IMG/VR virus record: IMGVR_UViG_3300031555_004524
Coordinates: 1-64,000 of that record
DNA from: a virus
Lineage: Duplodnaviria > Caudoviricetes
Direction: 5' to 3' (one strand)
DNA length: 64,000 nt
In this document: positions 5,774 through 25,371 of the stretch, piece after piece
How the letters are laid out: every line of letters starts with the position of its first letter
How positions within the stretch are numbered: position 1 is the stretch's first letter
Notes under the pieces: model-generated
Database searches by the model: none
The model's input: only the letters and a program-made list of their open reading frames with translations
Told to the model about the DNA's origin: nothing
Program-made: the position numbers and the translations under genes

Positions 5774-5830
5774 ACTATAAAATCCTCCTTTTTAAAATAA
5801 ACTTATTATATTGTGAGATTAGTTAATAAA

Positions 5831-5861
5831 TATAGGATAGGTTATATTAACCTATCCTATA
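5831..5861 (-). terminator. Intrinsic terminator
   Basis: Perfect stem TATAGGATAGGTT/AACCTATCCTATA. Confidence 0.75.
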
Positions 5862-5874
5862 TATTATTTTTAAG

Positions 5875-6954
5875 TTATTCTCTTGGAGATATAACAGGTG
5901 AAGACTCATCAGATATTGGATTTTTTAATTTATCCAAAAATTCACGAATTCCCATACATGGAATAATTCCATTTAATTTATTTCCCATATATGCATTTCT
6001 CATGATATCATTATACTGCTGAGATAATATTTCTTCGCTAATATCATCTTCTAATGCTTTATATACTTCATCATAGTATCGTTTGCACCATTTAAAGTTT
6101 GTTTCTGCGTGATCTTTTGCTCTAGCATAGCATTCAATATAATATTCATATATATTCAACATGCAGTTTACAGCCCACATAGTAATGAATCCATTATATG
6201 GTTTTTCTTTCTTGGCTTTTTTAACAGCATAGATCATATTTTCTACATATCCATAGAAGCTATCTCTTATACTACTTCCATAACTATATTGACAATCATT
6301 TGCTCTAGTGATACTATTTGGACTTTCATGCCAATAATATACATGTGCTGGAATGAAATTGATTTGCTCCTGATCACTACAACATAATCTAACTATTGTG
6401 TTAAATCCATTATCCTCATTTGCTCTGGAAGTTTCATGGAAACGAATATTATATTTTTCAATAAAACTTCTTCTATATAATTTTCCAAACATCCATATCA
6501 TATCTCTATCATGCTGTAACAAGATAGGACCTTCACCTGGCTGTAATCCTTCTTCGTGTACTTCGTCAAATATACCAACACATGCTTGAAATACACCATT
6601 ATTCATTTCAATGCCATTTCTTAATGCTTTTAATGCGAAAGACCCATTAAATGTATCATCAGCATCGATGAATGTCATGTATCCATTAGATGTATGATCA
6701 ATACCGTACTGTCTAGCTACACCTGGTCCTCCATTTTTTTCATATCTTAAAATATTAATTTTAAGAATAGATTCGAAACATGATGCTACTTTATGATAGT
6801 TCTGTTCAGTGGAAGCATCATCTACAATAGTAACTTCTAAATCACTAGCAATATCCTGACACGCAATACTAGCTAAACAGCGAAAGATAATATTATCAGG
6901 CACATTATAAGCTGGGATAATTATATCAATTTTACGATTATTTTTTTTAGCCAT
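5875..6954 (-). CDS. Glycosyltransferase family 2
   Basis: IIIPAYN, IVDDAST, GPGVARQYG, FIDADD, NED motifs. Confidence 0.93.
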   Translation of the reverse strand: MAKKNNRKIDIIIPAYNVPDNIIFRCLASIACQDIASDLEVTIVDDASTEQNYHKVASCFESILKINILRYEKNGGPGVARQYGIDHTSNGYMTFIDADDTFNGSFALKALRNGIEMNNGVFQACVGIFDEVHEEGLQPGEGPILLQHDRDMIWMFGKLYRRSFIEKYNIRFHETSRANEDNGFNTIVRLCCSDQEQINFIPAHVYYWHESPNSITRANDCQYSYGSSIRDSFYGYVENMIYAVKKAKKEKPYNGFITMWAVNCMLNIYEYYIECYARAKDHAETNFKWCKRYYDEVYKALEDDISEEILSQQYNDIMRNAYMGNKLNGIIPCMGIREFLDKLKNPISDESSPVISPRE

Positions 6955-7021
6955 AATTTTACTCTCCTTATTATTGATTTATATTATTATAAGGTTAATT
7001 CTATATAAAAATATTAATAAA

Positions 7022-7048
7022 GAAGGATAGGAAAAATTCCTATCCTTC
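7022..7048 (-). terminator. Intrinsic terminator
   Basis: GAAGGATAGGAA/TTCCTATCCTTC stem. Confidence 0.75.
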
Positions 7049-7060
7049 ATTAATTTATAC

Positions 7061-9322
7061 TTATTCCCCATTATTTATTCTTGATTGTTCTACATTAGAT
7101 ACTGGATATATGTAGATATTTTCTACTGTATTATAATATCTATTATTAGTAGTATCATTAGTCCATGTAATAGTATTACCTATCATACTATTTCTATTAT
7201 TAATCAAACAAGTATTCATACTAATACTATCTTTTAATACATATATATTTAACATGTTAGATGTATTTCTACCGTTGAAACAATATTGCATATTCGCTAC
7301 GTTAGGAGAATACATATACATGTTACCGTATAAATTATAACACTTATAATATGTATAACCCATACTTGTTACTTTATTTCCACATACTGGATTATCTGTA
7401 AGATTAGAGCAATTCCAATAAGTAAAATTCATATCTGTTACTTTATCACCACATACAGGATTACCTGTAATGTTATAGCAATTATAATATGTACTATTCA
7501 TAGCTGTTACATTATCTCCGCATACTGGACTACCTGTGAGGTTGGAGCAACCCTTATATGTATAATTCATATCTGTTACTTTATCTCCGCATACTGGACT
7601 ACCTGTAAGGTTAGAGCAATAATAATAAGTATAATACATATTTGTTACATTATTACCACATACTGGACTACCTGTAAGATTACTACAGCCGTGATATGTC
7701 TCATACATATCTGTTACATTATGTCCACATACTGGATTACCTGTAAGATTATTACACCAAACATATGTCCTACTCATACTTGTTACATTAGGTCCACATA
7801 CGGGACTACCTGTAAGATTAGTACACCAAACATATGTCCTACTCATACTTGTTACATTAGGTCCACATACGGGACTACCTGTAAGATTAGTACAATTACT
7901 ATATGTGCTGCCCATATATATTACTTTATCTCCACATACTGGACTACCTGTAAGGTTATAGCAATTACTATATGTGCTGCCCATATATATTACTTTATCT
8001 CCACATACTGGACTACCTGTAAGATTGTAGCAATCAGAATATGCACCACTCATACTTGTTACATTATTACCACATACTGGACTACCTGTAAGGTTAGTGC
8101 AATAGCGATATGTATGAGTCAGATCTGTTACATTATTACCACATGCCGGATTACCTGTAAGATTAGTACAATTATTATATGCACCACTCATAGTTGTTAC
8201 ATTATCTCCGCATACTGGGCTACCTGTTAGGTTGGAGCAATTAGTATATGTATTATTCATATTTGTTACATTATGTCCACATACTGGACTACCTGTAAGG
8301 TTATAACAATTACTATATGTCTCCCACATAGCTGTTACATTATTACCACATACTGGACTACCTGTAAGATTAGTGCAATTATTATATGTACTGATCATAC
8401 TTGTTACATTAGGTCCACATATTGGATTACCTGTAAGATTAGTGCAATTATCATATGCACAACCCATATCTGTTACTTTAGGTCCACATACTGGATTACC
8501 TGTAAGATTATAGCACATCTCATATGTATGTAACATACTTGTTACATTAGGTCCACACACTGGACTATCTGTTAATTTTGTACATCCAGAATATGCACTA
8601 GTCATACTTGTTACATTAGGTCCACATACGGGACTACCTGTAAGATTGAGGCAATTATAATATGCATATGCCATATCTGTTACTTTATTTCCACATACTG
8701 GACTACCTGTAATACTATTACACCAAAGATATGTACGACTCATATTTGTTACATTAGGTCCACATACTGGATTACCAGTAAGGTTATAACAATATTCATA
8801 TGTACTACTCATATCTGTTACATTATTACCGCATACTGGACTACCTGTAATACTATTACACCAAAGATATGTACGACTCATATCTGTTACATTATTACCG
8901 CATACTGGACTACCTGTAAGATTATAGCAAAAATAATACATAGCGGATATATTTGTTACATCTTGGCAATTTATGTTGGTTGTTTTTAAAGATTTCATAC
9001 CAGAAAATGCTCCGAATAAGCTATTGTTATACACACTAACATTATTTTGTATAGTTATACTAGTCATAGTTTTATATTGCGTAAAGTCTATATTGTAAAT
9101 TTGAATATATTTTTCATTTGGTATTTCGCATATTGTGCTTGGAACTCCGTTTAATGTGCCCTTCCATCCAGTAATTTTAGCTATACCATTTTCCACATAA
9201 TATTCAAAATCAATCAAGTTAAATTTGTCCCATACCATCGTGTTATCGAAATATACAGCATCCAAATCGACTCCTTCAAAAGTTATTGCTGTTATTTCAA
9301 CACCATTTACAATTATACTCAT
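7061..9322 (-). CDS. Cys-rich LRR-like (BspA/DUF285-type) repeat protein A, putative receptor-binding fibre tip
   Basis: N-cap DFEY..ITGWKGTLNGVPST, then 23 repeats of CxNLTGSPVCGxNVTxMxx(T/A)Yxx and a C-cap; lies in the fibre cluster. Confidence 0.75.
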   Translation of the reverse strand: MSIIVNGVEITAITFEGVDLDAVYFDNTMVWDKFNLIDFEYYVENGIAKITGWKGTLNGVPSTICEIPNEKYIQIYNIDFTQYKTMTSITIQNNVSVYNNSLFGAFSGMKSLKTTNINCQDVTNISAMYYFCYNLTGSPVCGNNVTDMSRTYLWCNSITGSPVCGNNVTDMSSTYEYCYNLTGNPVCGPNVTNMSRTYLWCNSITGSPVCGNKVTDMAYAYYNCLNLTGSPVCGPNVTSMTSAYSGCTKLTDSPVCGPNVTSMLHTYEMCYNLTGNPVCGPKVTDMGCAYDNCTNLTGNPICGPNVTSMISTYNNCTNLTGSPVCGNNVTAMWETYSNCYNLTGSPVCGHNVTNMNNTYTNCSNLTGSPVCGDNVTTMSGAYNNCTNLTGNPACGNNVTDLTHTYRYCTNLTGSPVCGNNVTSMSGAYSDCYNLTGSPVCGDKVIYMGSTYSNCYNLTGSPVCGDKVIYMGSTYSNCTNLTGSPVCGPNVTSMSRTYVWCTNLTGSPVCGPNVTSMSRTYVWCNNLTGNPVCGHNVTDMYETYHGCSNLTGSPVCGNNVTNMYYTYYYCSNLTGSPVCGDKVTDMNYTYKGCSNLTGSPVCGDNVTAMNSTYYNCYNITGNPVCGDKVTDMNFTYWNCSNLTDNPVCGNKVTSMGYTYYKCYNLYGNMYMYSPNVANMQYCFNGRNTSNMLNIYVLKDSISMNTCLINNRNSMIGNTITWTNDTTNNRYYNTVENIYIYPVSNVEQSRINNGE
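7343..8929 (-). repeat. Tandem array of 23 x 69-bp repeats (23 aa)
   Basis: Counted from the translation; recurring core CCACATACTGGACTACCTGTAAG on the + strand. Confidence 0.95.
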
Positions 9323-9349
9323 ATCATATACCTCCCTATTTTTTTATTT

Positions 9350-11083
9350 TTAAAGAGTTATATGTAAAGTGGTACCATCTAATACGAATTTTGGTCCAGC
9401 TTCTATATCATCTGGGAGATATTCTTTTTTCAATTTATATGTTGAATCAGCACCAAAACCAGAATATCCAGGTATAGTGATTTTTGAAATATATCCTTCA
9501 CTGCCCATGTCTGGAACATAAATACCTTTGTTAGCTAATGTAATTCCTTGAAGAGATATATTACTTTCTGTTGCTATAAATAGTATTGATCCTAATTCAT
9601 CTGAACCGATCGCATATAAATTAGATCCAAATGCCGTTACACCATCTGCTATTATATCCATAGTTTCAACGCCATCTGGTGTTGTAATTTCAATTGTCAT
9701 TCCATTAGCAATATCATCATATGTTATATCTGCTTCCGAAATATTGTATAACATGCCCTGTACGTTATATAATCCTGTTATATCACCGTTCCATTCTAAT
9801 GTATCAGTTCCACCAGATGTTACTTTTTCAAAAGGTTCCAACCATTTAGGTGTAATTACATAATCATTACCAGAAGAGTCAGCATAATAGAATTCAACAG
9901 TATATTCGCCATCTTCATGAATTGAACGAGTAAGCATTTGAACCATGGCTGTCAATCTCATACCAAGATTTTCGTCGCTCATAACCATAAAAATACACAA
10001 TATATCTTCTCCTGTATCAGGCATAGCCATCTCATCGTCAGGCATTAATCCCATATTTCCTAAGACGTATGCCTCTTGAGTGGTACCACTATCATCAGTA
10101 TCAGACATCAGCAACATTGGTGTTCCTTCAATATAACTACCATTCACTGCTACTTTCATATTTTTTGTAGGATCTAAGGTTGTTATCGGATCATTATAAT
10201 CCATTATTTCAACCCCTGCCATTGCAGCGTCCGTGCCCATACTTCCCATATACATAAATTCTAGAGCTAGATCTAAAGCTTTTGTATATGAAGAACCTCC
10301 AGACAAACATGGAATGAGACTCTTTTTAATTTTAGGACCGTCATATTCATTTCCCCCACCTACAGAGAACATATACCCAGGGATATATAAAGATGATGTA
10401 TATGTATAAACATATTCATCATCAGTAGTCTTACAAAAATAAATACCTTTTTTCGGGAAAATAACACCGTATAATGAGAAATTATCTGACGGAACTACCA
10501 TTATAGTCATATCAAATCTCATTAGAACTCCATCTACCACCTCCATAAATTGGCTACCATCTTCTTCTTCTGTTGTATTCTCAATAATATCATCATAATT
10601 GACATCAGTTATTCCAAAAGTATATCCATTCGCAAGATCATCCATTGTTAATACACTATTACTTACATGATATAATGCCAACGTACTATCAGGCACAGTA
10701 ATAAAAGTGTCACCATTTCCAGAAAAAGTTAATAATTCTGGAACTACAGAAGAAGCACCAGAAGATTCTAATAATCCTAATTTATTTAATGCTTCATCAG
10801 CAGTTGATGCACCAGTACCACCATTTGTTATAGGTAAAACACCTACAACCCCAGGAGTTGCATCTTCACTTCCATCAAATGAAGCGCTCATATCACTTTC
10901 TAAATCAACTAATATTTCTCTAGCATTTTTAAACTTTTCAACTGTTTTCTGTTCAGGATGAACATGATCACCTCTTGCTATAGTATCAGAAGAACCAGGT
11001 GTTTCTTCTCCAGCTATTTTTGGTAAGTCATCACAGAAGGCTAAGTCTTGATCGCTTAAATATGTTTTCATCTTATCACTCAT
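9350..11083 (-). CDS. Tail fibre-like protein with repeated modules
   Basis: ARGDHVHP and GVLPITNGGTGA fibre motifs; two ~120-aa modules ending K(K)GIY..IPGY; C-terminal FVLDGTTLHITL. Confidence 0.7.
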   Translation of the reverse strand: MSDKMKTYLSDQDLAFCDDLPKIAGEETPGSSDTIARGDHVHPEQKTVEKFKNAREILVDLESDMSASFDGSEDATPGVVGVLPITNGGTGASTADEALNKLGLLESSGASSVVPELLTFSGNGDTFITVPDSTLALYHVSNSVLTMDDLANGYTFGITDVNYDDIIENTTEEEDGSQFMEVVDGVLMRFDMTIMVVPSDNFSLYGVIFPKKGIYFCKTTDDEYVYTYTSSLYIPGYMFSVGGGNEYDGPKIKKSLIPCLSGGSSYTKALDLALEFMYMGSMGTDAAMAGVEIMDYNDPITTLDPTKNMKVAVNGSYIEGTPMLLMSDTDDSGTTQEAYVLGNMGLMPDDEMAMPDTGEDILCIFMVMSDENLGMRLTAMVQMLTRSIHEDGEYTVEFYYADSSGNDYVITPKWLEPFEKVTSGGTDTLEWNGDITGLYNVQGMLYNISEADITYDDIANGMTIEITTPDGVETMDIIADGVTAFGSNLYAIGSDELGSILFIATESNISLQGITLANKGIYVPDMGSEGYISKITIPGYSGFGADSTYKLKKEYLPDDIEAGPKFVLDGTTLHITL

Positions 11084-11120
11084 AATTATAAATTACCTCC
11101 TTTAATATGATTTAGTATTT

Positions 11121-11513
11121 TTAACCATTATTGAGTTCTTTGGCTACAATATTTCTATATACAACTGGCACTTTTTCTATTGAAACTTTTTCATCTTTAA
11201 TTTTCTGAATATAAGATTTAATGATTTGAGCAGTTATAATATTAACTTTATCTAAGTCAATATCTGGTTTATCCTCTTCAGAAATTTCAACAACATTGCC
11301 ATCTATATATTTATAATTATAACGACCAAATGTATCTTTTAATCCCTTTTTGAAATATTTTTTCTCCACCTGAATTAATTTAATAATAATATCTTCTTCA
11401 TGGATTTCAATATAATCCATTTCACTTGCATTTTTAGTAATAATAGAATTTGAGCATGAAATTACATTATTCTCAGCATCTACTTTTATATATAATTTAA
11501 TTTTAGTTAACAT
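11121..11513 (-). CDS. Tail-fibre assembly/chaperone-like protein (C-terminal CD1375/XkdX-like segment)
   Basis: GRYNYKYIDG and YIQKIKDEKVSIEKVPVVYRNIVAKEL motifs; position between fibre genes. Confidence 0.55.
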   Translation of the reverse strand: MLTKIKLYIKVDAENNVISCSNSIITKNASEMDYIEIHEEDIIIKLIQVEKKYFKKGLKDTFGRYNYKYIDGNVVEISEEDKPDIDLDKVNIITAQIIKSYIQKIKDEKVSIEKVPVVYRNIVAKELNNG

Positions 11514-11559
11514 TGGATATGTCCCCTTTCGTAATCGATTTATTATTATGTGAAAATGA

Positions 11560-11587
11560 AGAGAGATGGATTTAAATCCATCTCTCT
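11560..11587 (-). terminator. Intrinsic terminator
   Basis: AGAGAGATGGATTT/AAATCCATCTCTCT palindrome. Confidence 0.75.
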
Positions 11588-11590
11588 AAA

Positions 11591-13213
11591 TTACAGCATA
11601 ATATATGCATTGTCTGGAATTATTAATTCTGTGCTTGATTTACCCCGATAAGTTCCTTTCCAATCTGTCAGGGTATACATTCCAGTATCTTCATCATATG
11701 TGTATTCAAAATCTATTAATGCTTCCTCCATAGATTTTATATCAAGTGGAACGTCAACTGATACTGTTTCGCCCATTTCTGTATAGTATACTTCTACAGA
11801 TGTAGCATTCATTGATATATATTCATCATATGTATATTCATTAGATTCTAATATTCTATTAGTACCATCCTGATATACAGCAGATATTACCATTCCAGTT
11901 GGATCAAATTTTTCTCCCTCAATATAGTCAACTCTTGTAGGCATTGCACTAATAGCTAGACCGGCTACGCCGTCACCTCTACGAAAAGATACAAGACTTC
12001 CGTTCTGCATCTGAACAATATACTCTTCTCCAGTAATAGCATCTATCATTATGATATTTCTATATTTAACTTCCCCGATTTCATCCAATTCTTTTAAAAT
12101 ATCTTCTTTAACAGTATCAACATATTTCTTTGTAACTGGATGATAATCTTCGGTAGGAGTATACTCTTCTGTATTAGATTTAGATAATACATCTTTAATA
12201 CGAGCCAAAGTATCTGGAATATATTTTTCATCTAGAGTTTTTGTAGTTTCTTTGGAGATTTTAAGGTACGTAGCTCCACTCTCCACAAACATCATCTCAA
12301 TGAGATATAAACCAGCTTTTTCCACTGTTGTATTTACACCTAACACATCTTCTGTAAGTACATAGCCATCAGTTGGAAATCCATAAACAAATTCTATTGC
12401 TCTGTAGAACCCATCATTAAACCCATGAATCGCACTTTCAGGTATCTCTTCATAAATCGCAACCAATCCGTCTTCGATTGTATCTGCAACAGCTTTTGCT
12501 CCATACAGTTCTTCTTTTGGTACATAGTCAGCCACTCTTACAAAATTAATACCACCAACAATTTCAATTCTCTCTGCGTCATCAAAGTTTCCATCAGTCT
12601 CCAGGATTACTTTTCCATCGCTGTAAAAAGGTTTATCTTCTAAATCATTCCAACTGTGAGAGTGTTTAGGGAGATATTTTTCGTCTAATTTATGAACTGT
12701 TTCATTTATTGAATGTACTGAAACTGTATGTTCATCTGTATTACCATCTGAAAAAGCTAATACTGCTATAGCAGACATATTATTACCAGTCATAATACCA
12801 AATACAAATGGTAAGTTATCATATTTAGGATTAAGATCTTGGTCAAATTCTCCATAATAATGTGTCATTTGTTGGTTACCTGAAATAGTACTTACGCATT
12901 GTATATTCTCATACTTAACTCCATCAATATAAATATTTACAGGTTCATTATTCACAGGCATATTAGATATAGTAATACTTGTTGGATTAAAATTACTATC
13001 CCAACCAGAAATAATTGTTGCATTTTCAACAATAGATCCATTATCTTCATACACTAAATAGTGTGTTTTATTTTTAATGAAACCAGGAGCAGTTGCATTG
13101 CTTTGATTCCAATCAGATTGCTGTTCATTTAAACTAGGCAGATTGGCTAAAGATTTATAGTCGATCGGTTTAGGGCCATCTGCCGTCATTATGCTTTTAA
13201 TATAATCAGCCAT
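11591..13213 (-). CDS. Tail fibre-like protein with bacterial Ig-like domain, ending in an LRR N-cap
   Basis: QSDWNQ..FIKNK, KLDEKYLP, HSWNDLEDKP, YHPVTKKYVD fibre motifs; PTRVDYIEGEKFDPTGM (Big-like). Confidence 0.7.
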   Translation of the reverse strand: MADYIKSIMTADGPKPIDYKSLANLPSLNEQQSDWNQSNATAPGFIKNKTHYLVYEDNGSIVENATIISGWDSNFNPTSITISNMPVNNEPVNIYIDGVKYENIQCVSTISGNQQMTHYYGEFDQDLNPKYDNLPFVFGIMTGNNMSAIAVLAFSDGNTDEHTVSVHSINETVHKLDEKYLPKHSHSWNDLEDKPFYSDGKVILETDGNFDDAERIEIVGGINFVRVADYVPKEELYGAKAVADTIEDGLVAIYEEIPESAIHGFNDGFYRAIEFVYGFPTDGYVLTEDVLGVNTTVEKAGLYLIEMMFVESGATYLKISKETTKTLDEKYIPDTLARIKDVLSKSNTEEYTPTEDYHPVTKKYVDTVKEDILKELDEIGEVKYRNIIMIDAITGEEYIVQMQNGSLVSFRRGDGVAGLAISAMPTRVDYIEGEKFDPTGMVISAVYQDGTNRILESNEYTYDEYISMNATSVEVYYTEMGETVSVDVPLDIKSMEEALIDFEYTYDEDTGMYTLTDWKGTYRGKSSTELIIPDNAYIML

Positions 13214-13302
13214 AATTAATTTCTATCTCCTTTCCATTAAACTGGGTATTTAATAATATGTGAATAGAAACCATATTTAAGGCGTTTTAATCATAAAATC
13301 AA

Positions 13303-13330
13303 GGAGAGAGTATTACACAATACTCTCTCC
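13303..13330 (-). terminator. Intrinsic terminator
   Basis: GGAGAGAGTATT/AATACTCTCTCC stem. Confidence 0.75.
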
Positions 13331-13333
13331 AAT

Positions 13334-13978
13334 TTATTCTACAGTTAAAACACCTTCACTTGATAACAAAGCTGTTTCTCCAAACATTAATACTCCATCG
13401 TCTGATAATACAGGATTTCTATTCACTGGAATAATTTTTCCTGTAAGATCAACCCCAAGAATAGTTCCATAAAATTCTTCAGTGAGAGTACTATCTAATT
13501 TTTTAGCTAATGCATCACCTGTTGCTTTTGCATCGGCTGCTTTACCTTGAACTGATAATGTATCATCTAAAGCAATAATTTCAATATCAGTTAAAGTTTC
13601 GATACCATTACCCAATGTTAATGTAATTTTTCCATCTGTAACGCCCATATTTTTAATATATGTGCTTGCAATATCCTGCCCGAGACTGTCTTTTGCTCCA
13701 AGTGGGTTCCAGCTAGTTCCATCATAGAATTGAAATTCTCTTGTGTCAGTGATGAAATATATTCCGTTTGTGATTGGAGTAATAGTTGATTTCTCGGCAG
13801 AAGTTATTTTATAAAGATTGGATACCTGAATACGAACGGTATCAGTAATATCAAGGAAAATTTTTCCAGTATCCATTGTGTAAATAACTTGACCTTCTTT
13901 AATAGTCAAAGCATTTACCTGATATTCATATAATTTATAATGTTTAACTCTTGCCATAGTATTTGCCACCACTTTCAA
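13334..13978 (-). CDS. Fibre adaptor-like structural protein
   Basis: GQVIYTMDTGKIFLD, GIYFITDT..YDGTSW and DDTLSVQGKAADAKATGD motifs typical of Firmicute phage fibres; start uncertain. Confidence 0.6.
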   Translation of the reverse strand: MKVVANTMARVKHYKLYEYQVNALTIKEGQVIYTMDTGKIFLDITDTVRIQVSNLYKITSAEKSTITPITNGIYFITDTREFQFYDGTSWNPLGAKDSLGQDIASTYIKNMGVTDGKITLTLGNGIETLTDIEIIALDDTLSVQGKAADAKATGDALAKKLDSTLTEEFYGTILGVDLTGKIIPVNRNPVLSDDGVLMFGETALLSSEGVLTVE

Positions 13979-14045
13979 CTTAAAATATCAGGAGGAGGAA
14001 AGATTACACCTCCTCCTCCTATAATATTGTTAGTTTATTAGAATA

Positions 14046-15197
14046 TTATTCCATTGTTCCCCAAGACATAGCAGCTTCTACCTGTTCATCTACATAAGCT
14101 TTAGCATCTTCTAATGCTTTATCAGCTTTTTCTGTAGCGTCAGCTTTAGCCAGTGCAAGAACACCTGTTTCTTCATTGTTAATAGCAGCGATATCATCTG
14201 CATTTTTCTTAACTGCAGCATCGTTAGCTTCTTTGTATGCATTTAATGCATCTTCAACAGCTTTAGCTGAACCAGCAGCATCGAAGTCAGCTGCTTCCAT
14301 AAATGCAGCACTCTTAAGACCTGTTACCTGAACATCTGCACCTCTAACAGCGATTGCACCATTAGCAGCACCAGCTGTAATATCAGCAACCTGAAGAGCA
14401 GAATCAGCTTTACCTAAAGAAGCCTGAACGTTAACATCGAGTTTAGCTAATGTTACGTTAGCGTCAGCGATTTTAGCTGTAACAACAGCAGCGTCAGCTA
14501 ATTCTGTAGTTCCAACAGAACCAGCAACGATTGTTGCGCTAATTTCGCGACCAACCATAGATAACTGTACCTGAGCAGCGTTAGCCTGTACAGTATAGAT
14601 ATCAACAAGTGTACCAACGTTTACATAGATCTTATCTTCTGTAGCGTTAGCAAGTGTAATTTCAAGATATGTACCAGCTGGCTGTCCTTCTGGATTTTCA
14701 ACAACCTGACCAGATTTAACTACCATATCTTTTGGAATGTTTACTGCACCAATTGCAGCACCATTCTGTTTAAATGTATAAACTTTTGCGTAATCTGAAG
14801 ATTCAGATTCTTCAATTGTTACGATACCAGCAGAACCTGTAGTTCCGATTAATGTCTTTAATTCGTTGATAGCAGAAACTACATTAGTTTTTTCTACTGT
14901 TTCTAATGCAGTAACATCACCAAGCTGAGCCTGAAGTTCAGCTTTAGCGTCTTCTACCATCTTAGCTACTGAGCCTTCTCCATCACTTGTGAGAACTGCT
15001 AATGTTTCGTTAATTGTAACGATAGCCTGTTCATTTTCAGCAACGCGAGCTACTGCGTCTGCAAGATCAGCAGCGTTAGAAAGTTTAATACTTCCAAGAT
15101 ATAAATCTGTATTGTCAATAAAATAGAAAGTATCCACAACTGGAGTTGTGAGAGCTGCGTACTGAGCAGCTGTACCTTTTAAGAATTTAACTGCCAT
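14046..15197 (-). CDS. Fibre/whisker-like coiled-coil structural protein
   Basis: N-terminal VKFLKGTAAQY..FYF..DLYLG; IPKDMVV; Ala-rich heptads; codon usage like the capsid gene. Confidence 0.65.
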   Translation of the reverse strand: MAVKFLKGTAAQYAALTTPVVDTFYFIDNTDLYLGSIKLSNAADLADAVARVAENEQAIVTINETLAVLTSDGEGSVAKMVEDAKAELQAQLGDVTALETVEKTNVVSAINELKTLIGTTGSAGIVTIEESESSDYAKVYTFKQNGAAIGAVNIPKDMVVKSGQVVENPEGQPAGTYLEITLANATEDKIYVNVGTLVDIYTVQANAAQVQLSMVGREISATIVAGSVGTTELADAAVVTAKIADANVTLAKLDVNVQASLGKADSALQVADITAGAANGAIAVRGADVQVTGLKSAAFMEAADFDAAGSAKAVEDALNAYKEANDAAVKKNADDIAAINNEETGVLALAKADATEKADKALEDAKAYVDEQVEAAMSWGTME

Positions 15198-15264
15198 TTT
15201 AAATAGCCTCCTTTTAAAAATTTTCTTATTACAATGTTAAAATGAATTATGGTCATCTTTTATA

Positions 15265-17454
<2,190 letters not shown>

Positions 17455-17542
17455 TTTATGTATAAACTCCTTTCGATAGTTATTTATCTAAAATGATATT
17501 TAATTTAATGTGAATTTCATTTTATAGATATTATGTTAAATA

Positions 17543-17571
17543 AGAGGTATAGGGATTATCCCTATACCTCT
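17543..17571 (-). terminator. Intrinsic terminator
   Basis: AGAGGTATAGGGA/TCCCTATACCTCT stem. Confidence 0.75.
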
Positions 17572-17580
17572 ATTATTTTA

Positions 17581-20500
17581 TTAAGCCATTAAGCTTGATA
17601 AATTTACTGTATATGTAACAACATCGCCATTCATATATACTAATGAAGACCCTTCAATAACAACATCTGTAAATTTGATAGGAGCTTTTGTTAAGTTAAG
17701 ATTCATAGCATCATTATCAGCAATAACTCCTGCTACATAAGTACCAGAAACTTTTTCATTACTTGTAACTCCGCCATTTCTTCCAGGAATGATAGAAGCA
17801 ATTTTACCTCCATTTACATGAAGCTCTGATTTACAATAAACAGCTGTACAAGTATCATCTTCTTCAGCTCCAGCGATTAAACTTTCAATTTCTCCGCCTT
17901 CTACTGTAATAGAAATATTATTAATTGTACCTCTACTGCATCCATCTGCAACTTTAACTTTTCCTCCATTAATAATCATTTCTCCAGATTCAACGTTACC
18001 ATTTGAACCTGCTGGTGTGATCCACTGAACTTCCCCACCGTTCATTACCACTTTTGTAGTTCCAGCTGTTGTTAAACCATTAATACCAGCTCCATATACT
18101 GCAACTATTGCAGCTTCTGTATCATTAATGATTACGTCTGTGCATCCTACAAGTGATTTATAGTGAACGTTTCCATAATATCCAACTCCAGCTCCACCAA
18201 CACCAGTAATTGTACCTCCATTTATAACAATAGATGCGTGCCCCATAGTACCATTGCCCAAAGAGCCACCAATTACTCTCTTGATTTTACCACTATAAAC
18301 TGTAAGGCTTCCTGCTGGATAGTATACTACTCTTTCTCTACCATCCCCTCCACCATATACATCTCCACCTTCTGGGAAGACTATAGATTTACAAGTTTTA
18401 GAGTCTCTATCGACATTCCATTCTGCTCTCACATAACCGTCTTTGTCAGCATGGAAATCTACATGTACACCACATGCAAAGAATGCTTTGATTTCTTCAT
18501 CATAATATGGAACGGCTGGTAAATCTCCAAGAACTTTAACAAGGTTCATCTCTTCAGCAACTTTTGTAAATGCGTCTGATAATACTCCATCTCTGAATGT
18601 ACCAGAAACACATGATACATCAGCAACACCGTTATTCTGACCAGCACCAAGTTTTGTAACTACTGTTCCACCATTGATATAGAGTTCCGCTTTATTATAT
18701 GCTGCTGTAGCAGCTCCTGCATATAATCTATCAATTGTTCCACCATTTACAGTAATTTTAGCATCACCAAGTTTACCATTATTACCAGCCTGAGCTACAG
18801 TAATTTCTCCACCATTGATAACTAATTCTGCAATTCCAGTATAACCATTTGATCCACCTGCAACTGCGAATTCCATTTTACCACCATTGATTGTAGTATG
18901 AGCATGATTTGTAACTCCGAGACCATTACATCCTGCACCATATACTGCTGTTTCATTGAGATTTTCATTATCATTTACAATAACTTCTGCATATCCAACT
19001 GTATTGTTATAGTATACACCATTAAGATGAGCAATACCGCCGCCAGCAATAGCAGAACATGATCCGCCATTAACTACAACTAATGTGTGTCCTACTGTAC
19101 CATGTCCAAGCGAACCACCATTGAGACGTTTAACGAGACCGCTATTAACTGTTACACTACCTGCTGCATAGTGTACAGGATTTTCTAATCCATTTCCGCC
19201 ACCATAGATATCTGTATTTTCTGGGAATACTAATGATTTCTGTAATTTTCCACCATTTTCATCCCATACAGCTTTAAGTGTACCAGCCTCTTCACCAGCA
19301 TAGATTTCAACATGTGTTCCGCATGCAAAGAATGCTTTAATTTCTTCATCAAAGTATGGTTCATGTGGCATTTTAGCACATACCGTATCTACCATTTCTT
19401 TTTTATCTTCTTCTGTAAAGTAGTCTGTTCCTTTTACAGGTGTATATCCATCTAAACCTTTTGGACCCTGATCACCTTTAAGACCCTGAGGACCCATTGG
19501 ACCTGTTGGTCCTACTTCACCCTGTGGACCCTGGATACCCTGTGGACCCATTGGACCAGTTTCACCCTGATCGCCTTTATCGCCTTTTTCGCCCTGGATA
19601 CCCTGAGGACCCATTGGGCCTACTTCACCCTGTGGACCTGCTTCTCCAGTTTCACCTTTTTCACCCTGGATTCCCTGCGGGCCCATTGGACCAGTTTCAC
19701 CCTGATCACCTTTATCACCTTTTTCACCCTGTGGACCTACTGGACCCTGTTCGCCAGTTTCGCCTTTAAGACCCTGTGGACCCATTGGACCTACTTCGCC
19801 TTGTTCTCCCTGAGGACCCTGAATACCCTGTGGACCTACTTCACCCTGGATACCTTGAATACCCTGGATACCCTGTTCTCCCTGTGGACCCTGGATACCT
19901 GCTGCTCCAGATAAGTCAACAACAAATGCAAATCCTTCAGCTACTCTAATGTATAATTTAGCATTATCTTCATCTTCTACATGGCTGCAAATAAGAACAA
20001 ATTCGCCGATTTTAACATTATCTTTATCAGCTTCCATAGCAGCTACAGAAGTATATGTATTAGCAACAGAGAATGGGTCACCTTTATCACCTTTTTCGCC
20101 CTGGATACCCTGTTCACCCTGGATACCCTGTGGACCTACTTCTCCCTGAAGACCCTGAACACCCTGGATACCACGTTCTCCCTGGTCTCCTTTGTCACCT
20201 TTATCTCCTTTATCACCTTTTTCACCCTGTGGACCCATTGGACCTGTTGGTCCTACTTCACCCTGTGGACCCTGGATACCCTGTTCACCCTGGATACCCT
20301 GTTCGCCCTGAGGACCCATTGGACCTACTTCGCCCTGTGGACCTACTTCCCCAGTTTCACCTTTTTCGCCCTGGATTCCCTGAGGACCCTGAATACCTGT
20401 CATGCCTGATAAATCTACTACAAATTTAAATTCATCTGCACCTTTAACGTATAATTTAGCATTGTCTTCATCTTCTACATTACTGCTAATAAGAACAAAT

Positions 20501-20955
20501 TTTCCTTCAGCAATATTAGCGACATCTGCATTCATTTCTTCAACAGAAGCATATACTTTCTCTACAGCAAAAGGAGCACCAGCAGCACCAGTTTCACCTT
20601 TTTCACCTTTTTCACCTTTAGCTCCTGTTTCACCTTTTTCTCCCTTTTCACCTTTAACTCCCTGGATACCCTGAACACCCTGGATACCCTGAACACCCTG
20701 AGGTCCCTGAGGGATAGAAAAATTAATTTTTCTAGTACCCTGTTCTGCATCAAATTCAGTTGTTACTGCAGCTTCTGAAGCATCAGCTACAATTTTAACT
20801 TCACCTACAGAAATATCAGCACTATTAAGTTTAACCTGTTCTTCTAAATGTTCCATATGGGCTACTGTAAGAACAGCGTTGTTAGCTTTATTTTCTTCAA
20901 ATGTTTTTGTATTATCATATGCGTTATATTTATTTGGAGTATAGTTATAAGCCAT
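17581..20955 (-). CDS. Collagen-like fibre protein 1 (1124 aa)
   Basis: Three Gly-X-Y segments separated by two copies of a ~58-aa domain ([16 protein letters not shown]); two tandem [13 protein letters not shown] beta-helix-like domains. Confidence 0.88.
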
Positions 20956-20994
20956 TATACTAATCCTACCTTTCTTTTAATTATTATTTAGTTT

Positions 20995-21339
20995 TTATTC
21001 ATAAAAGCGCGCGAGATCATATCCGCCAGTTTCAAATCCAGTAACATCATGTGTTACTAGACCTTCCATACCTTCATCTGGGATAATAGGATCAGTTGCA
21101 CTTCCAAGAGCTTCGTCTGAATTGTCATCATTGAAATTCTCTTTATCTAATAGAATCTCACTGTTATCTTCAAGAACTTCATATACATCTGCATAGTTTA
21201 ATGCACGAATGACTTCTTTACGGTTTAATTCTAATACTATTTCTTCATGAATACGATCAGGAAGAATATCAGGTACACCTATATCAAACTTAGGTATAAT
21301 TCTTACCTTTTTTGTTGCTGTAAAACTACCTGTATGCAT
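20995..21339 (-). CDS. Hypothetical (probable virion) protein
   Basis: 114-aa ORF with AAGGAG RBS and late promoter at 21364-21375. Confidence 0.75.
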   Translation of the reverse strand: MHTGSFTATKKVRIIPKFDIGVPDILPDRIHEEIVLELNRKEVIRALNYADVYEVLEDNSEILLDKENFNDDNSDEALGSATDPIIPDEGMEGLVTHDVTGFETGGYDLARFYE

Positions 21340-21393
21340 TTACACTTCTCCTTTCAATATATTTAATATAATGTGAATTTAGTCAAAGTAATA

Positions 21394-21422
21394 ATGAGAG
21401 ATGGTATTTTACCATCTCTCAT
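21394..21422 (-). terminator. Intrinsic terminator
   Basis: ATGAGAGATGGTA/TACCATCTCTCAT stem. Confidence 0.7.
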
Positions 21423-21433
21423 CTTTTATTTAT

Positions 21434-24373
21434 TTAATCACCATTATCTATTCTGGCTTTTTCAACATTTGCAACTGGATATATATGTATACCATATCCA
21501 ACAATTGTATGACTATTATTACCATTATCAATTATAGTTACTTCTTCTCCAACTATAGATGATATATTGTAATGCAAACAACTTTCTAACGATTTGCTAT
21601 TTTCTAATACGTAGATATTAAGGTCATTCTCCTTATTTCTTCCTGAGAAGCAACCAATCATAGTTTCTACATTAGGTGAATACATGTACATATTTCCATA
21701 TAAATTATAACAATTCTGATATGTAAACCACATATTTGTTACATTAGCTCCACATACTGGACTACCTGTGAGATTGTAGCAATTATAATATGCCATATCA
21801 AAATATTTAACATTATTTCCACATACTGGACTACCTGTGAGATTGTAGCAATCATAATAAGCATTGTCCATAGCTGTTACATTAGCTCCACATACTGGAC
21901 TACCTGTAAGGTTAGAGCATCCTGTATATGCATTTGATAAAAATGTTACATTATTTCCACATGCTGGACTACCTGTGAGATTGGAGCAATATGTATATGC
22001 ATTACTCATACTCCTTACTTTATTACCACATACTGGACTACCTGTGAGATTGTAGCAATACATGTATGTTTTAGTCATATTAGTTACATTAGGTCCACAC
22101 ACTGGATTACCTGTAATATGCATGCAACCATGATATGTACTAGCCATACTTGTTACCTTATTTCCACATACTGGACTACCTGTAAGATTGTAGCAATTAT
22201 AATATGCATATTCCATATATGTTACATTATTACCACATACTGGACTACCTGTAATTTTATAGCAATTATAATATGTCATATACATATCTGTTACATTAGG
22301 TCCACACACTGGACTTCCTGTAATATTGTAGCAATGATAGTATGTATAACGCATATTTGTTACATTATTTCCACACACTGGACTTCCTGTAAGGTTACGG
22401 CAACTATGATAAGCATAACTCATATCTGTAACTTTATTCCCACATACTGGATCACCTGTAAGGTTATAGCACATCTCATATGTATGTAACATACTTGTTA
22501 CATTAGGTCCACACACTGGACTATCTGTTAATTTTGTACATCCAGAATATGCACTAGTCATACTTGTTACATTAGGTCCACATACTGGACTACCTGTGAG
22601 ATTAATACATCCTGTATATGTATATCTCATATCTTTTACGTTATTACCACACACTGGACTTCCTGTAAGGTTAGTGCAATCATAATATGTGCTATACATA
22701 TTTAGAACATTTTCTCCACATGATGGATTATCAATAAGCTTTTCGCACCAAGTATACATATTAGCCATATTTGATACATATTGATGGTCAAACTCCACGT
22801 GTTTCAGATTACTCATTGAATAAAAAGCATTACTCATATCAGTGTTTTCAATAACTATAGTATCAGGTATACTGATTTCAGTAATATTTGAATATTTTCT
22901 AAAATTCATTGTTTCGCCTAATTTCACTCCATAATAATCTGGAAGTTGGCATATTGTACTTGGAACTCCATTTAATGTACCTTTCCATCCAGTTATTTCA
23001 ACAACATGATCTTCGTAAACATATTCAAAATCAGTTAGAAGCATATTGAAATAGTATTCATCGATATTCATACTCTTGTATAATACTGGTTCTACGCTAA
23101 AATTAGTATAGTCTATATCCTTACTTAACCATAATTTTATAGTAATAGGTGTTTCATAATCTTCTATAACAAATTCGCATCCTCCGCCAATATCGCATAC
23201 ATCTTCTCTACTACCTTGATTTGTAGTGTCAGCTGATCGTGTTATTCCAGGTATCTCTTTTCCATTACTATAAACCTTAACACCAAACATATTATGCTCA
23301 TATGAAGATTTATCCAAACTAGTATTGTCATTTAAACCAATTAATTTGTAAGCTCCAGCTGGTAACATCAATGGGCATTCATCAGATATTATTGGAATTA
23401 ATTGATCACTAGTCTGTTCAGAAGAAGTGACTGTTACATCTTTATTATGTAATGAAAAACGAAGTCCATCGATTATGGTTGAACCTTGTTTCAACCCAGC
23501 CCATGTATCAGGTATTAAATCTACAGTACCTGGAGTCAAATCATTTGTAGGCCCGCATACTAATGCCCCATATAATGGTCTTGCATATAAGAATGGTTGT
23601 AAGTCATAAATTGATGATCTAATAAGACCTCTATCAGCTCCAGAATTATCCATATGCAGATAATGCTCACTGTCAGTCATAATACCAACATGATTTATTC
23701 CCATTATGAAATCTGGATTTGTTAAAGTTCCATCATCATTTTCAGTATATAAAAAGCATAAGTCTCCAGATCTAGCATAAGATGTATCAAAGAACCATGT
23801 AAATCCCATTCTATCATAATATAATGCCATATCTCCAGCAGTTAATACTCTTAAATAATCATGCTGATCCATATATTCGTAATATGGAAAAACATATGGT
23901 TCTTCGTATCTAACTGATTGTAAATCAAAATATTCTTCCACCCATTTTTTATCATAATCGCATTCTATTAATGATGGATTACACTCTGCATTGTTTTTAG
24001 AATATGGGCTCTGATGATAAGATATACCCCTTAATACCAAACCTATGAATGTTGAATCATCCATGATGGCATTTCCATTATTATCTCGAATAGTAGCTTC
24101 TGTTTCGCCTTTCAAACAGCCTGTTTCTTCTACATATTTAAAAGATTTTTCTCCATTAATAGATGAATTCATGTATGTCATCGCTAATTTTACAGCTTCC
24201 CATGCATTATCAAAATTTGAATAATATACACCCATAGGTGTACTTATATCCATATAATTCACAGGTATATTATCTATCTCTTTAGCAAAATTATTTGCTA
24301 TAATAAGGCTAGTTCTTTTACTCTTACCGCGAATTTTATCCGCAATTTCTTGAAATTTTTCTGCTTGAGTCAT
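21434..24373 (-). CDS. Repeat protein B: IADKIR adaptor + degenerate NlpC/P60-like domain + beta-sandwich + Cys-rich LRR-like array
   Basis: FQEIADKIRGK N-terminus; MDDSTFIGLVLRG..RSGDLCF..INHVGIM; same N-cap, repeats and C-cap as 7061-9322. Confidence 0.75.
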   Translation of the reverse strand: MTQAEKFQEIADKIRGKSKRTSLIIANNFAKEIDNIPVNYMDISTPMGVYYSNFDNAWEAVKLAMTYMNSSINGEKSFKYVEETGCLKGETEATIRDNNGNAIMDDSTFIGLVLRGISYHQSPYSKNNAECNPSLIECDYDKKWVEEYFDLQSVRYEEPYVFPYYEYMDQHDYLRVLTAGDMALYYDRMGFTWFFDTSYARSGDLCFLYTENDDGTLTNPDFIMGINHVGIMTDSEHYLHMDNSGADRGLIRSSIYDLQPFLYARPLYGALVCGPTNDLTPGTVDLIPDTWAGLKQGSTIIDGLRFSLHNKDVTVTSSEQTSDQLIPIISDECPLMLPAGAYKLIGLNDNTSLDKSSYEHNMFGVKVYSNGKEIPGITRSADTTNQGSREDVCDIGGGCEFVIEDYETPITIKLWLSKDIDYTNFSVEPVLYKSMNIDEYYFNMLLTDFEYVYEDHVVEITGWKGTLNGVPSTICQLPDYYGVKLGETMNFRKYSNITEISIPDTIVIENTDMSNAFYSMSNLKHVEFDHQYVSNMANMYTWCEKLIDNPSCGENVLNMYSTYYDCTNLTGSPVCGNNVKDMRYTYTGCINLTGSPVCGPNVTSMTSAYSGCTKLTDSPVCGPNVTSMLHTYEMCYNLTGDPVCGNKVTDMSYAYHSCRNLTGSPVCGNNVTNMRYTYYHCYNITGSPVCGPNVTDMYMTYYNCYKITGSPVCGNNVTYMEYAYYNCYNLTGSPVCGNKVTSMASTYHGCMHITGNPVCGPNVTNMTKTYMYCYNLTGSPVCGNKVRSMSNAYTYCSNLTGSPACGNNVTFLSNAYTGCSNLTGSPVCGANVTAMDNAYYDCYNLTGSPVCGNNVKYFDMAYYNCYNLTGSPVCGANVTNMWFTYQNCYNLYGNMYMYSPNVETMIGCFSGRNKENDLNIYVLENSKSLESCLHYNISSIVGEEVTIIDNGNNSHTIVGYGIHIYPVANVEKARIDNGD
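21713..22747 (-). repeat. Tandem array of 15 x 69-bp repeats (23 aa)
   Basis: Counted from the translation (first unit degenerate); same consensus as 7343-8929. Confidence 0.95.
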
Positions 24374-24374
24374 A

Positions 24375-25124
24375 TTAATATCTCGCCTCCCATGTCATAT
24401 CTATTGCTTCTTGAATTGCAGCATTAACATACTCTCGAACGTTTCTTATAGCTGAACCTACAGCAGCAGAATCTGCAGCAGCTCCAGTAACACTTAACGT
24501 TGTATCTACATTAATTTTCCCACTACCGTTTTCTATCATCTGTACAATGTCTGTGAATTTATCACCTACAGCTTTAGAATCCGCAGCGTATCCTTCTTTA
24601 GTTAAGGTATCATCTATTGCTATATTATTAGATGGACCTGCTGGACCTTGTTCGCCTTGTGGACCTGGATCTCCTTTATCTCCCTTATCACCTTTATCGC
24701 CTTTATCTCCCTTATCACCTTTATCGCCTTTATCTCCCTTATCACCTTTATCGCCTTTTTCCCCTCTAAGACCATCACCTCCAGGTGGACCCTGTAAACC
24801 TGTATCTCCTCTTTCCCCCTGAGGACCAGTTGGGCCTCTCTCTCCTCTATCACCTTTATCACCTTTTGGGCCTTGCGGACCTGGATCTCCTTTAGGACCA
24901 ACAGGTACATTTATATTTAGTAATCTCTTATCTGCAGTTTCTGTTATAGATGCAGATGGCGCATCGGCTACTTCTACAATACCAATCTCTAACGGTTTAT
25001 TAGCTGCATATATACCATCTTCAATATGTGCCATGTTATCTTCAGTAACTACAGCATTTCTATCTATATTTTCTTGTAACGTTAGATCAGGATCGAATGT
25101 ATTCCATTCTTGTTTTTCATACAT
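24375..25124 (-). CDS. Short collagen-like fibre protein 3
   Basis: Same N-terminal anchor as the other two collagen genes; (GDK)8 run; two D.TL...G.AADS.AVG modules. Confidence 0.85.
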
Positions 25125-25149
25125 TATACTTTAATCCTCCTTTGCTTAT

Positions 25150-25371
25150 AAAATAAATGGCTACCTAAAACGCAATTGGTAGCCACTACTATCTGCATGT
25201 TTACTGGTATGTTTTCATTTTGACAGGAGTTACCCAGAAGACTATTATATGTCTTCTGGGAAATGCGCGTAAGAAAAAATTTACATCATACCAATATGGC
25301 ATTTATGGGTCATAATTTTTTATAATAATCAGAAATGCTTTATTTGATAATTATGTATAGTATATCTGATT
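25150..25371 (-). promoter_or_regulatory. Structured ~220-nt leader or ncRNA ending in a terminator just upstream of the 25124 RBS
   Basis: Late promoter at 25371-25382; hairpins at 25233-25260 and 25158-25185 (the latter followed by U-rich sequence); no ORF. Confidence 0.55.

Follow-up and report, generated by a model that had tools for sequence, protein, structure and literature searches.

Neisseria pilE/pilS, Borrelia vlsE and lamprey VLR each combine one expression site with promoterless silent cassettes, and they vary at high frequency within a clone. Repeat evolution has also been described from phage tails, namely in the BACON domain arrays of crAss-like phages, whose tail proteins evolve by tandem repeats (PMC6949934), and in the tail fibre of EfV12-phi1, which acquired in-frame tandem duplications of 1.8 kb during coevolution (PMC6365445). 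Large repeat families of the BspA or DUF285 type occur on surfaces, among them Tannerella BspA, the DUF285 lipoproteins of Mycoplasma and the BspA-like family of Trichomonas (PMC2843621). Here we describe an uncultured jumbo phage (Caudoviricetes; IMG/VR record IMGVR_UViG_3300031555_004524), in whose tail-fibre region two repeat genes, A and B, share an identical block of 122 nucleotides (nt). The window analysed comprises the first 64 kb of the record, which is 248,149 bp long, has a GC content of ~30% and is rated complete by CheckV. We consider it probable that the block is a recent ectopic gene-conversion tract in a repeat family that undergoes concerted evolution under surface diversification, and that an ordinary mechanism, not a dedicated device, has produced it.

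Repeat architecture and comparison with described systems

Gene A (7061-9322, minus strand; 753 amino acids, aa) was delimited by its open reading frame (ORF) and translation and consists of a short N-terminal region, an N-cap, 23 units and a C-terminal cap domain. Gene B (21434-24373, minus strand; 979 aa), likewise delimited by its ORF, starts with a unique N-terminal domain of ~447 aa, which is followed by an N-cap, 15 units and a C-terminal cap. The unit register places array A at 7322-8908 (minus strand, period 69 bp, no indels) and array B at 21692-22726 (minus strand, units of 69 bp). Each unit encodes 23 residues with two cysteines (consensus PVCGxNVTxMxxTYxxCxNLTGS), and the arrays are uninterrupted. 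Residues P1, C3, V7, M10, Y14, C17, L20 and G22 form the fixed scaffold of each coil, positions 5, 9, 11, 12, 15, 16 and 18 are the variable surface positions, and Tyr, Ser and Asn abound at the hypervariable ones. An earlier sequence-only reading of the window had counted 38 units in total, and we obtained the same number (23 in A and 15 in B). It had also proposed to look for more arrays in the remaining genome. The search of the whole genome revealed a third paralog outside the window, gene C (793 aa, 28 units; genome positions 232214-234595, L002:1297-3678, plus strand), and no further array or core copies beyond A, B and C.

The N-cap just before the array is common to A and B (ITGWKGTLNGVPSTIC), with 16 identical residues and 43 of 48 nt identical. 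The C-terminal cap domains of A and B are homologous (54% aa identity), and that of C is 89% identical to that of A, while C is without the first ~75 residues of the N-terminal region of A. The sequence-only reading had regarded the two genes as otherwise diverged with unrelated N-termini. This holds for the first ~447 residues of B, which are unique, but not for the two caps. Within the arrays, antisense ORFs at 7691-8230, 8273-8533 and 22118-22489 (all plus strand) are stop-free artefacts of the repeats and not genes.

With its 23 residues and two cysteines, the repeat probably represents a variant of the BspA/DUF285 type. The motif NVTxMxxTYxxCxNLT presumably agrees with the DUF285/BspA pattern, the N-cap forms the hairpin common in such proteins, B scores above the LRR_5 threshold, and in both cases there is a large multigene repeat family on surfaces. 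The phage arrays differ by their strict 23-residue period, the two invariant cysteines, the GSPVCG linker and their location in a tail-fibre module. The AlphaFold2 (AF2) model of A moreover bears more resemblance to right-handed beta-helix tailspikes than to a curved leucine-rich repeat (LRR).

The process matches known repeat evolution in phage tails that does not depend on a reverse transcriptase (RT). With the BACON arrays and EfV12-phi1 it has in common the RT-independent, in-frame duplication or exchange of repeats in tail-associated proteins, there of gut or Firmicutes phages, by ordinary recombination. The units described here are, however, shorter (69 bp) and more numerous (66 per genome), they are distributed over three paralogs with an inter-gene tract, and each carries a hypervariable face. 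As in diversity-generating retroelements (DGRs) such as that of Bordetella phage BPP-1 (Mtd), variation affects defined surface positions over an invariant scaffold, with a receptor-binding role that is inferred here. In contrast to DGRs, the genome encodes no RT and holds no adenine-mismatched template/variable pair, and variation among close variants is modest. Invertase or shufflon switching (Gin/Cin/Rci) differs in its use of serine or tyrosine recombinases, neither of which occurs in this genome. The resemblance to pilE/pilS, vlsE and VLR lies in short segments that move between homologous repeat loci with junctions in conserved sequence; unlike in the pilS and vls systems, all three phage loci are complete genes, and identical A and B alleles recur across samples. 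Among the papers searched, none joined "jumbo phage" and "BspA-like".

A tract of 122 nt shared by two repeat genes

Exact sequence comparison located one copy of the block at 8508-8629 in A (units 5-6) and the other at 22464-22585 in B (units 3-4), both on the minus strand and with zero mismatches across 122 nt. The identity noted in the sequence-only reading is therefore borne out base for base, and the unit register confirmed its assignment to these units and to hypervariable residues. From a point 3 nt inside unit 5 of A (unit 3 of B), the block extends 56 nt into unit 6 of A (unit 4 of B), so that two complete sets of variable residues are covered and both ends fall within the conserved core encoding NLTGSPVCG. 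No other exact match of at least 40 nt exists between A and B. Among all 2145 unit pairs (66 units of A, B and C) the mean identity was 0.738 with a standard deviation of 0.056, as compared to 0.986 for A05/B03 and 0.971 for A06/B04. The block also contains a rare core variant, TKLTD, which among the 66 units is found in A05 and B03 only.

A null expectation for the run length was obtained by simulation with column-specific match rates for in-register A and B arrays. The longest run came to 33±4 nt and in none of 2000 simulations exceeded 54 nt, as opposed to the 122 nt observed. Analytically, a run of 122 nt has a probability of ~1e-21.5 per start, and with 345 possible starts the overall P is ~1e-19. 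The patch shared by A and B is real and recently copied, and the match is far beyond chance. As we read it, the match is a clean and statistically unambiguous case of ectopic gene conversion, with two paralogous repeat genes of the tail-fibre region as partners.

Assembly of the shared tract

Exact core matches of up to ~46 nt render the arrays ambiguous for short k-mers, and a path switch in the de Bruijn graph within the 69-bp repeats might have put units of A into B or the reverse. A related contig (G001) indeed ends inside an array, and the exact gene C protein has no record in other assemblies, nor has it close variants there. We nonetheless regard such an artefact as highly improbable. 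The exact 979-aa protein B is present on contigs from two other samples (JGI samples 3300032167 and 3300029705; 8.4 and 8.0 kb), and the exact 753-aa protein A on one other contig (JGI sample 3300032167; 8.8 kb). All of these contigs carry the same neighbouring genes, and they break in collagen genes and not in the arrays. With both proteins found unaltered in assemblies of other metagenomes, misassembly is unlikely; an artefact would in addition need two in-phase switches that keep the array length, together with the loss of the true units of B. At 90% identity the cluster of B holds a single sequence.

A related viral contig of 184 kb (L010:1-2943; IMGVR_UViG_3300020112_000604) ends inside a two-array gene of this repeat family, which suggests that 23-residue arrays break short-read assemblies.

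Homogenisation of the repeat units

Duplicated units are not restricted to the shared tract. In A, units 14/15 and 16/17 had been noticed as near-exact tandem copies, for which we measured identities of 0.94 and 0.97, and the recurrence of a motif in units 1-2 and 3-4 is reflected by an identity of 0.93 between A01 and A03. Gene C is an internal mosaic with duplicated units in shuffled order: units 5-7 resemble units 24-26 (123 nt exact), C8 equals C22 and is one base off C23, and C12 resembles C18 and C21. Near-duplicate units in this genome differ by 28 non-synonymous and 17 synonymous substitutions, the non-synonymous ones being almost all at variable positions.

The core codons are far more uniform than the codon usage of the genome predicts. 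L20 is encoded by CTT in 44 of 56 units, though the genome prefers TTA (58%), S23 by AGT in 46 of 48 units (21% genome-wide) and T8 by ACA in 55 of 56 units (46% genome-wide). Identity at four-fold sites between A and B is 0.74 in the units and 0.33 in the C-terminal domains, the latter being based on 12 sites only. Among units it amounts to 0.80 in this genome as compared to 0.57-0.60 in three related phage loci. The preferred core codons of the relatives are different ones (TTA or CTA for L20, ACT for T8, TCT for S23). Since core codons differ between phage lineages, there is no conserved cis-acting recombination signal. The homogenised cores and the duplicates are, as judged from these patterns, an outcome of lineage-specific concerted evolution.

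A more far-reaching proposal would be that the three arrays with their 66 units form a combinatorial receptor-binding repertoire based on recombination, whose cores are kept identical at the DNA level by selection for frequent UvsX-driven exchange of surface-coding half units within and between fibre genes. We consider this quite unlikely. If true, phages would possess an equivalent of VLR- or pilS-type diversification that works without an RT, and the expansion of the 23-residue family to thousands of members in jumbo-phage metagenomes would be explained.

Variation in related phages

Two related phages (L017 and L018) show a syntenic arrangement in which a giant DUF285 protein and a multi-array protein are followed, after further genes, by an A-like gene and a family 2 glycosyltransferase (GT2). 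They contain 67-72 units in 14 kb, with a longest exact repeat of 36-37 nt. Given the lack of long exact repeats in these relatives, recent exchange appears to be sporadic and not constitutive. An identical tract between paralogs was present in 1 of the 3 genomes compared. While the core proteins of L017 and L018 are 95-97% identical, their syntenic A-like genes share only 54% identity, without collinearity of the units, which indicates a rapid turnover of the locus, as is usual for receptor-binding genes of phages.

Such a turnover, far faster in genes of the tail-fibre region than in core genes, would also fit a horizontal origin of the block, which A or B might have received in a module exchange with a related phage during co-infection. 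Both copies, however, reside in one genome and are 100% identical, so that the simplest source of either is the other copy. A scan of metagenome contigs with the 93-nt core of the block gave no match among records that are not near-identical, and the phage database held no similar DNA. We therefore judge an import from another phage to be very unlikely.

Natural variants were compared in nine clusters at >=90% identity. Varying positions made up 6-33% of the array columns and 3-26% of the non-array columns, a ratio of 0.5-2.4, and were concentrated at phases 5, 6, 8, 9, 11, 12, 15, 16 and 18, with the scaffold fixed. The variation of the arrays looks like ordinary surface divergence and not like hypermutation. 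Changes in unit number were encountered as well. One related cluster contains proteins that match throughout except for exactly 69 aa (3 units), with the junction at NL|TGSPVC, and in another, near-identical proteins of 1111, 1088 and 1065 aa correspond to a difference of 0, 1 and 2 units. The indel breakpoints in close variants of the relatives are located in the core. Two samples of one related phage showed 7 differences in 16,289 nt, 4 of them in a stretch of 16 nt inside a repeat core. These 4 form a putative micro-conversion patch; the other 3 cluster in non-repeat sequence, so that clustering is not specific to the arrays. For A itself, IMG/VR contained one relative only, which ends at a contig end.

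Some further observations were made in the relatives. At positions 9781-9794 of L018/L019, two samples of one related phage, three clustered substitutions (FAAISETK vs FATRSEIK) lie in the non-repeat part of a 625-aa DUF285 protein. The giant DUF285 gene upstream in L018/L019 is predicted to encode 2424 vs 2398 aa, and this gap of 26 aa is about one DUF285 unit. In L018, a phage of 216 kb, a protein of 1486 aa (L018:3511-7971, plus strand) strings together four array-plus-cap modules. The array and its C-cap thus act together as a mobile module, several of which can be joined one after the other.

Recombination machinery and search for a dedicated system

The sequence-only reading had proposed that the arrays are diversified without an RT, by recombination or gene conversion through the core of the 69-bp unit, and had found neither an RT nor a site-specific recombinase in the window. 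The latter observation extends to the whole 248-kb genome: no reverse transcriptase (PF00078) was detected in the 248,149 bp at E <= 0.1, and no serine (PF00239) or tyrosine (PF00589) recombinase was detected in the whole genome, with positive controls in each search. What the genome does encode is a UvsX-like recombinase, a general strand-exchange protein (genome positions 84067-85323, L020:768-2024, minus strand; phrog_97, E 6e-38), which falls just below the cut-off of the RecA Pfam model. No template/variable pair of the DGR type was found, in that the block is without mismatches and near-duplicate units differ by mixed types of substitution that are not adenine-specific. When the genome outside the arrays was searched for copies of the repeat core that might serve as guide or template, only chance 12-mers emerged. 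The idea of a donor guided by TnpB or TIGR, or resembling a DGR template region (TR), was dismissed on the same genome-wide result. A 15-mer core match at 152467 turned out to be an ordinary gene junction with a ribosome-binding site (RBS).

Each of the three genes A, B and C is equipped with an RBS, an ATG start codon and a downstream terminator hairpin. As all three are complete genes, there are no silent cassettes. This bears on the possibility of an evolved, RT-independent cassette-shuffling system, in which the cores are selected as recombination substrates and units are exchanged at high frequency within and between the three genes to generate new binding surfaces, in analogy to lamprey VLR assembly or to pilS/vls antigenic variation. 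Such a system might account for the unusually uniform synonymous sites of the cores, the out-of-order duplicated units in C, the one inter-gene tract, the unit-number polymorphism in the relatives and the abundance of Tyr, Ser and Asn at hypervariable positions. It is at odds with the three self-sufficient genes and the lack of silent donors, with a genome devoid of RT, invertase and integrase, and with the failure to find a guide-like core copy. It is also at odds with core codons that change from phage to phage, with relatives of 67-72 units that contain no exact repeat over 37 nt, with A and B alleles that recur unchanged across samples (the cluster of B being one sequence), and with an array variability that, in clusters of close variants, amounts to only 0.5-2.4 times that of the remaining sequence. 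We thus consider a shuffling system of this kind unlikely.

As to the mechanism put forward in the sequence-only reading, exchange through the unit core without an RT stands, since the block is a recombination product that ends in the NLTGSPVCG core and units are gained and lost in register in the relatives; a dedicated or programmed process does not follow from it. The further suggestion of an undescribed system did not hold, in view of the missing silent cassettes and cis site, a recombinase of general function, recurring exact alleles, relatives without recent exchange and arrays at most ~2.4 times as variable as other sequence.

In the gene-conversion scenario that we favour, about two units would have been copied between non-allelic positions of A and B, either by gene conversion or by a double crossover, and both ends of the tract would have been resolved inside the NLTGSPVCG-coding core as the source of homology. 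The machinery would be that of general homologous recombination, that is the UvsX-like recombinase of the phage and/or the RecA of the host, together with replication slippage. The same exchange process would have duplicated units of A and C, both in tandem and at a distance, and would keep the repeat cores homogeneous, with selection diversifying the surface residues. Exchange would then be an evolutionary by-product of the repeat architecture in a recombination-proficient phage.

Several points speak against this scenario or weaken it. Concordant assemblies are the sole support for the tract. A profile likelihood of the donor direction leans slightly to an A/C-type donor, with a classifier that cannot assign the own units of B reliably. 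Selection for recombinability is another possible reason why synonymous sites in the cores are so uniform. The AF2 model was built from a single sequence, and context and fold are the only grounds for the inferred location on the virion and for receptor binding. If unit exchange measurably alters the host range, phages would have a second way, independent of an RT, to diversify receptor binding. As the evidence points to ordinary recombination, the main value of the case is descriptive.

Repeat family, fold and putative function

Genes A, B and C encode BspA/DUF285-like repeats of 23 residues with two cysteines, which are predicted to form a beta-solenoid. The Pfam model LRR_5 (PF13306) matched B with 30.8 bits (cut-off 27.7) at residues 491-615, that is the N-cap and the first units, and scored A with 17.5 bits, below the threshold; individual units were likewise below Pfam thresholds. 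DUF285 (PF03382) was not reported for A or B at E <= 0.01, and the precomputed hit for B is termed "faint". Many of the homologues have precomputed hits to PF03382 and PF13306. More than 2,900 homologues were found in metagenomes, many of them on contigs of 130-340 kb. None of the 120 homologues listed bears an informative name, a few being called "hypothetical protein". The repeat family is poorly described and has no functional annotation in the source databases, and the present case draws attention to it as a large unannotated family of, probably, host-recognition proteins.

The AF2 model of A predicts an all-beta solenoid with a predicted local distance difference test (pLDDT) score of 80-92 over residues ~140-640. 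VIA-align of this model gave Z scores of 18-21 to phi29 gp12, to the tailspikes of Phi92, CBA120 and HK620 and to pertactin-like adhesins, with ~19-21 for phi29 gp12 and the Phi92 and CBA120 tailspikes. Within the top 50, the best matches were right-handed beta-helix tailspikes or adhesins, and no solved BspA-type LRR chain was included. Foldseek gave no match in the PDB at E <= 0.001, and the sequence search of the PDB gave a sole weak match to the LRR of a plant NLR (7crb, E 1.4e-5). Matches to Kazal_2, nitrite reductase and GSU0071 were rejected as low-complexity noise of the Cys repeats. From context and fold, A, B and C are most likely receptor-binding fibres or spikes.

Residues 1-447 of B had no match in Pfam, PHROG or NCBIfam and no relatives among the IMG/VR records that are not near-identical. 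An NlpC/P60-like stretch (DLCFLY...GINHVGIM) was recognised by eye in this domain, and no model supports it.

Genomic context

The region from 3.5 to 31 kb is encoded entirely on the minus strand and represents the late structural and lysis module. Endolysin and GT2 come first, then A. The next genes encode a tail-fibre-like product, the Big_3 protein, a product carrying a tail-tip domain and two fibres with collagen repeats. B is next in order, and after it come another collagen protein (the third), a holin and the major head protein. The endolysin (amidase and glucosaminidase) and the GT2 glycosyltransferase adjoin A at 3566-6954 (minus strand; profile matches of the Pfam/PHROG type). The two collagen-repeat tail-fibre genes between A and B are found at 15265-20955 (minus strand; Pfam Collagen and PHROG tail-fibre families). 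An Rfam scan of 6900-25300 detected no RNA family, and megablast of 20 kb against the phage database gave no match. The GT2 gene stands beside an A-like gene in the relatives too and is 75% identical to the GT2 of L017. The fibre-like Big_3 protein of 540 aa (11591-13213, minus strand), identified by a profile match and by its N-cap motif, ends in the N-cap motif of A and B (DFEYTY...LTDWKGTYRG...IIPD) and then stops, with no array following it.

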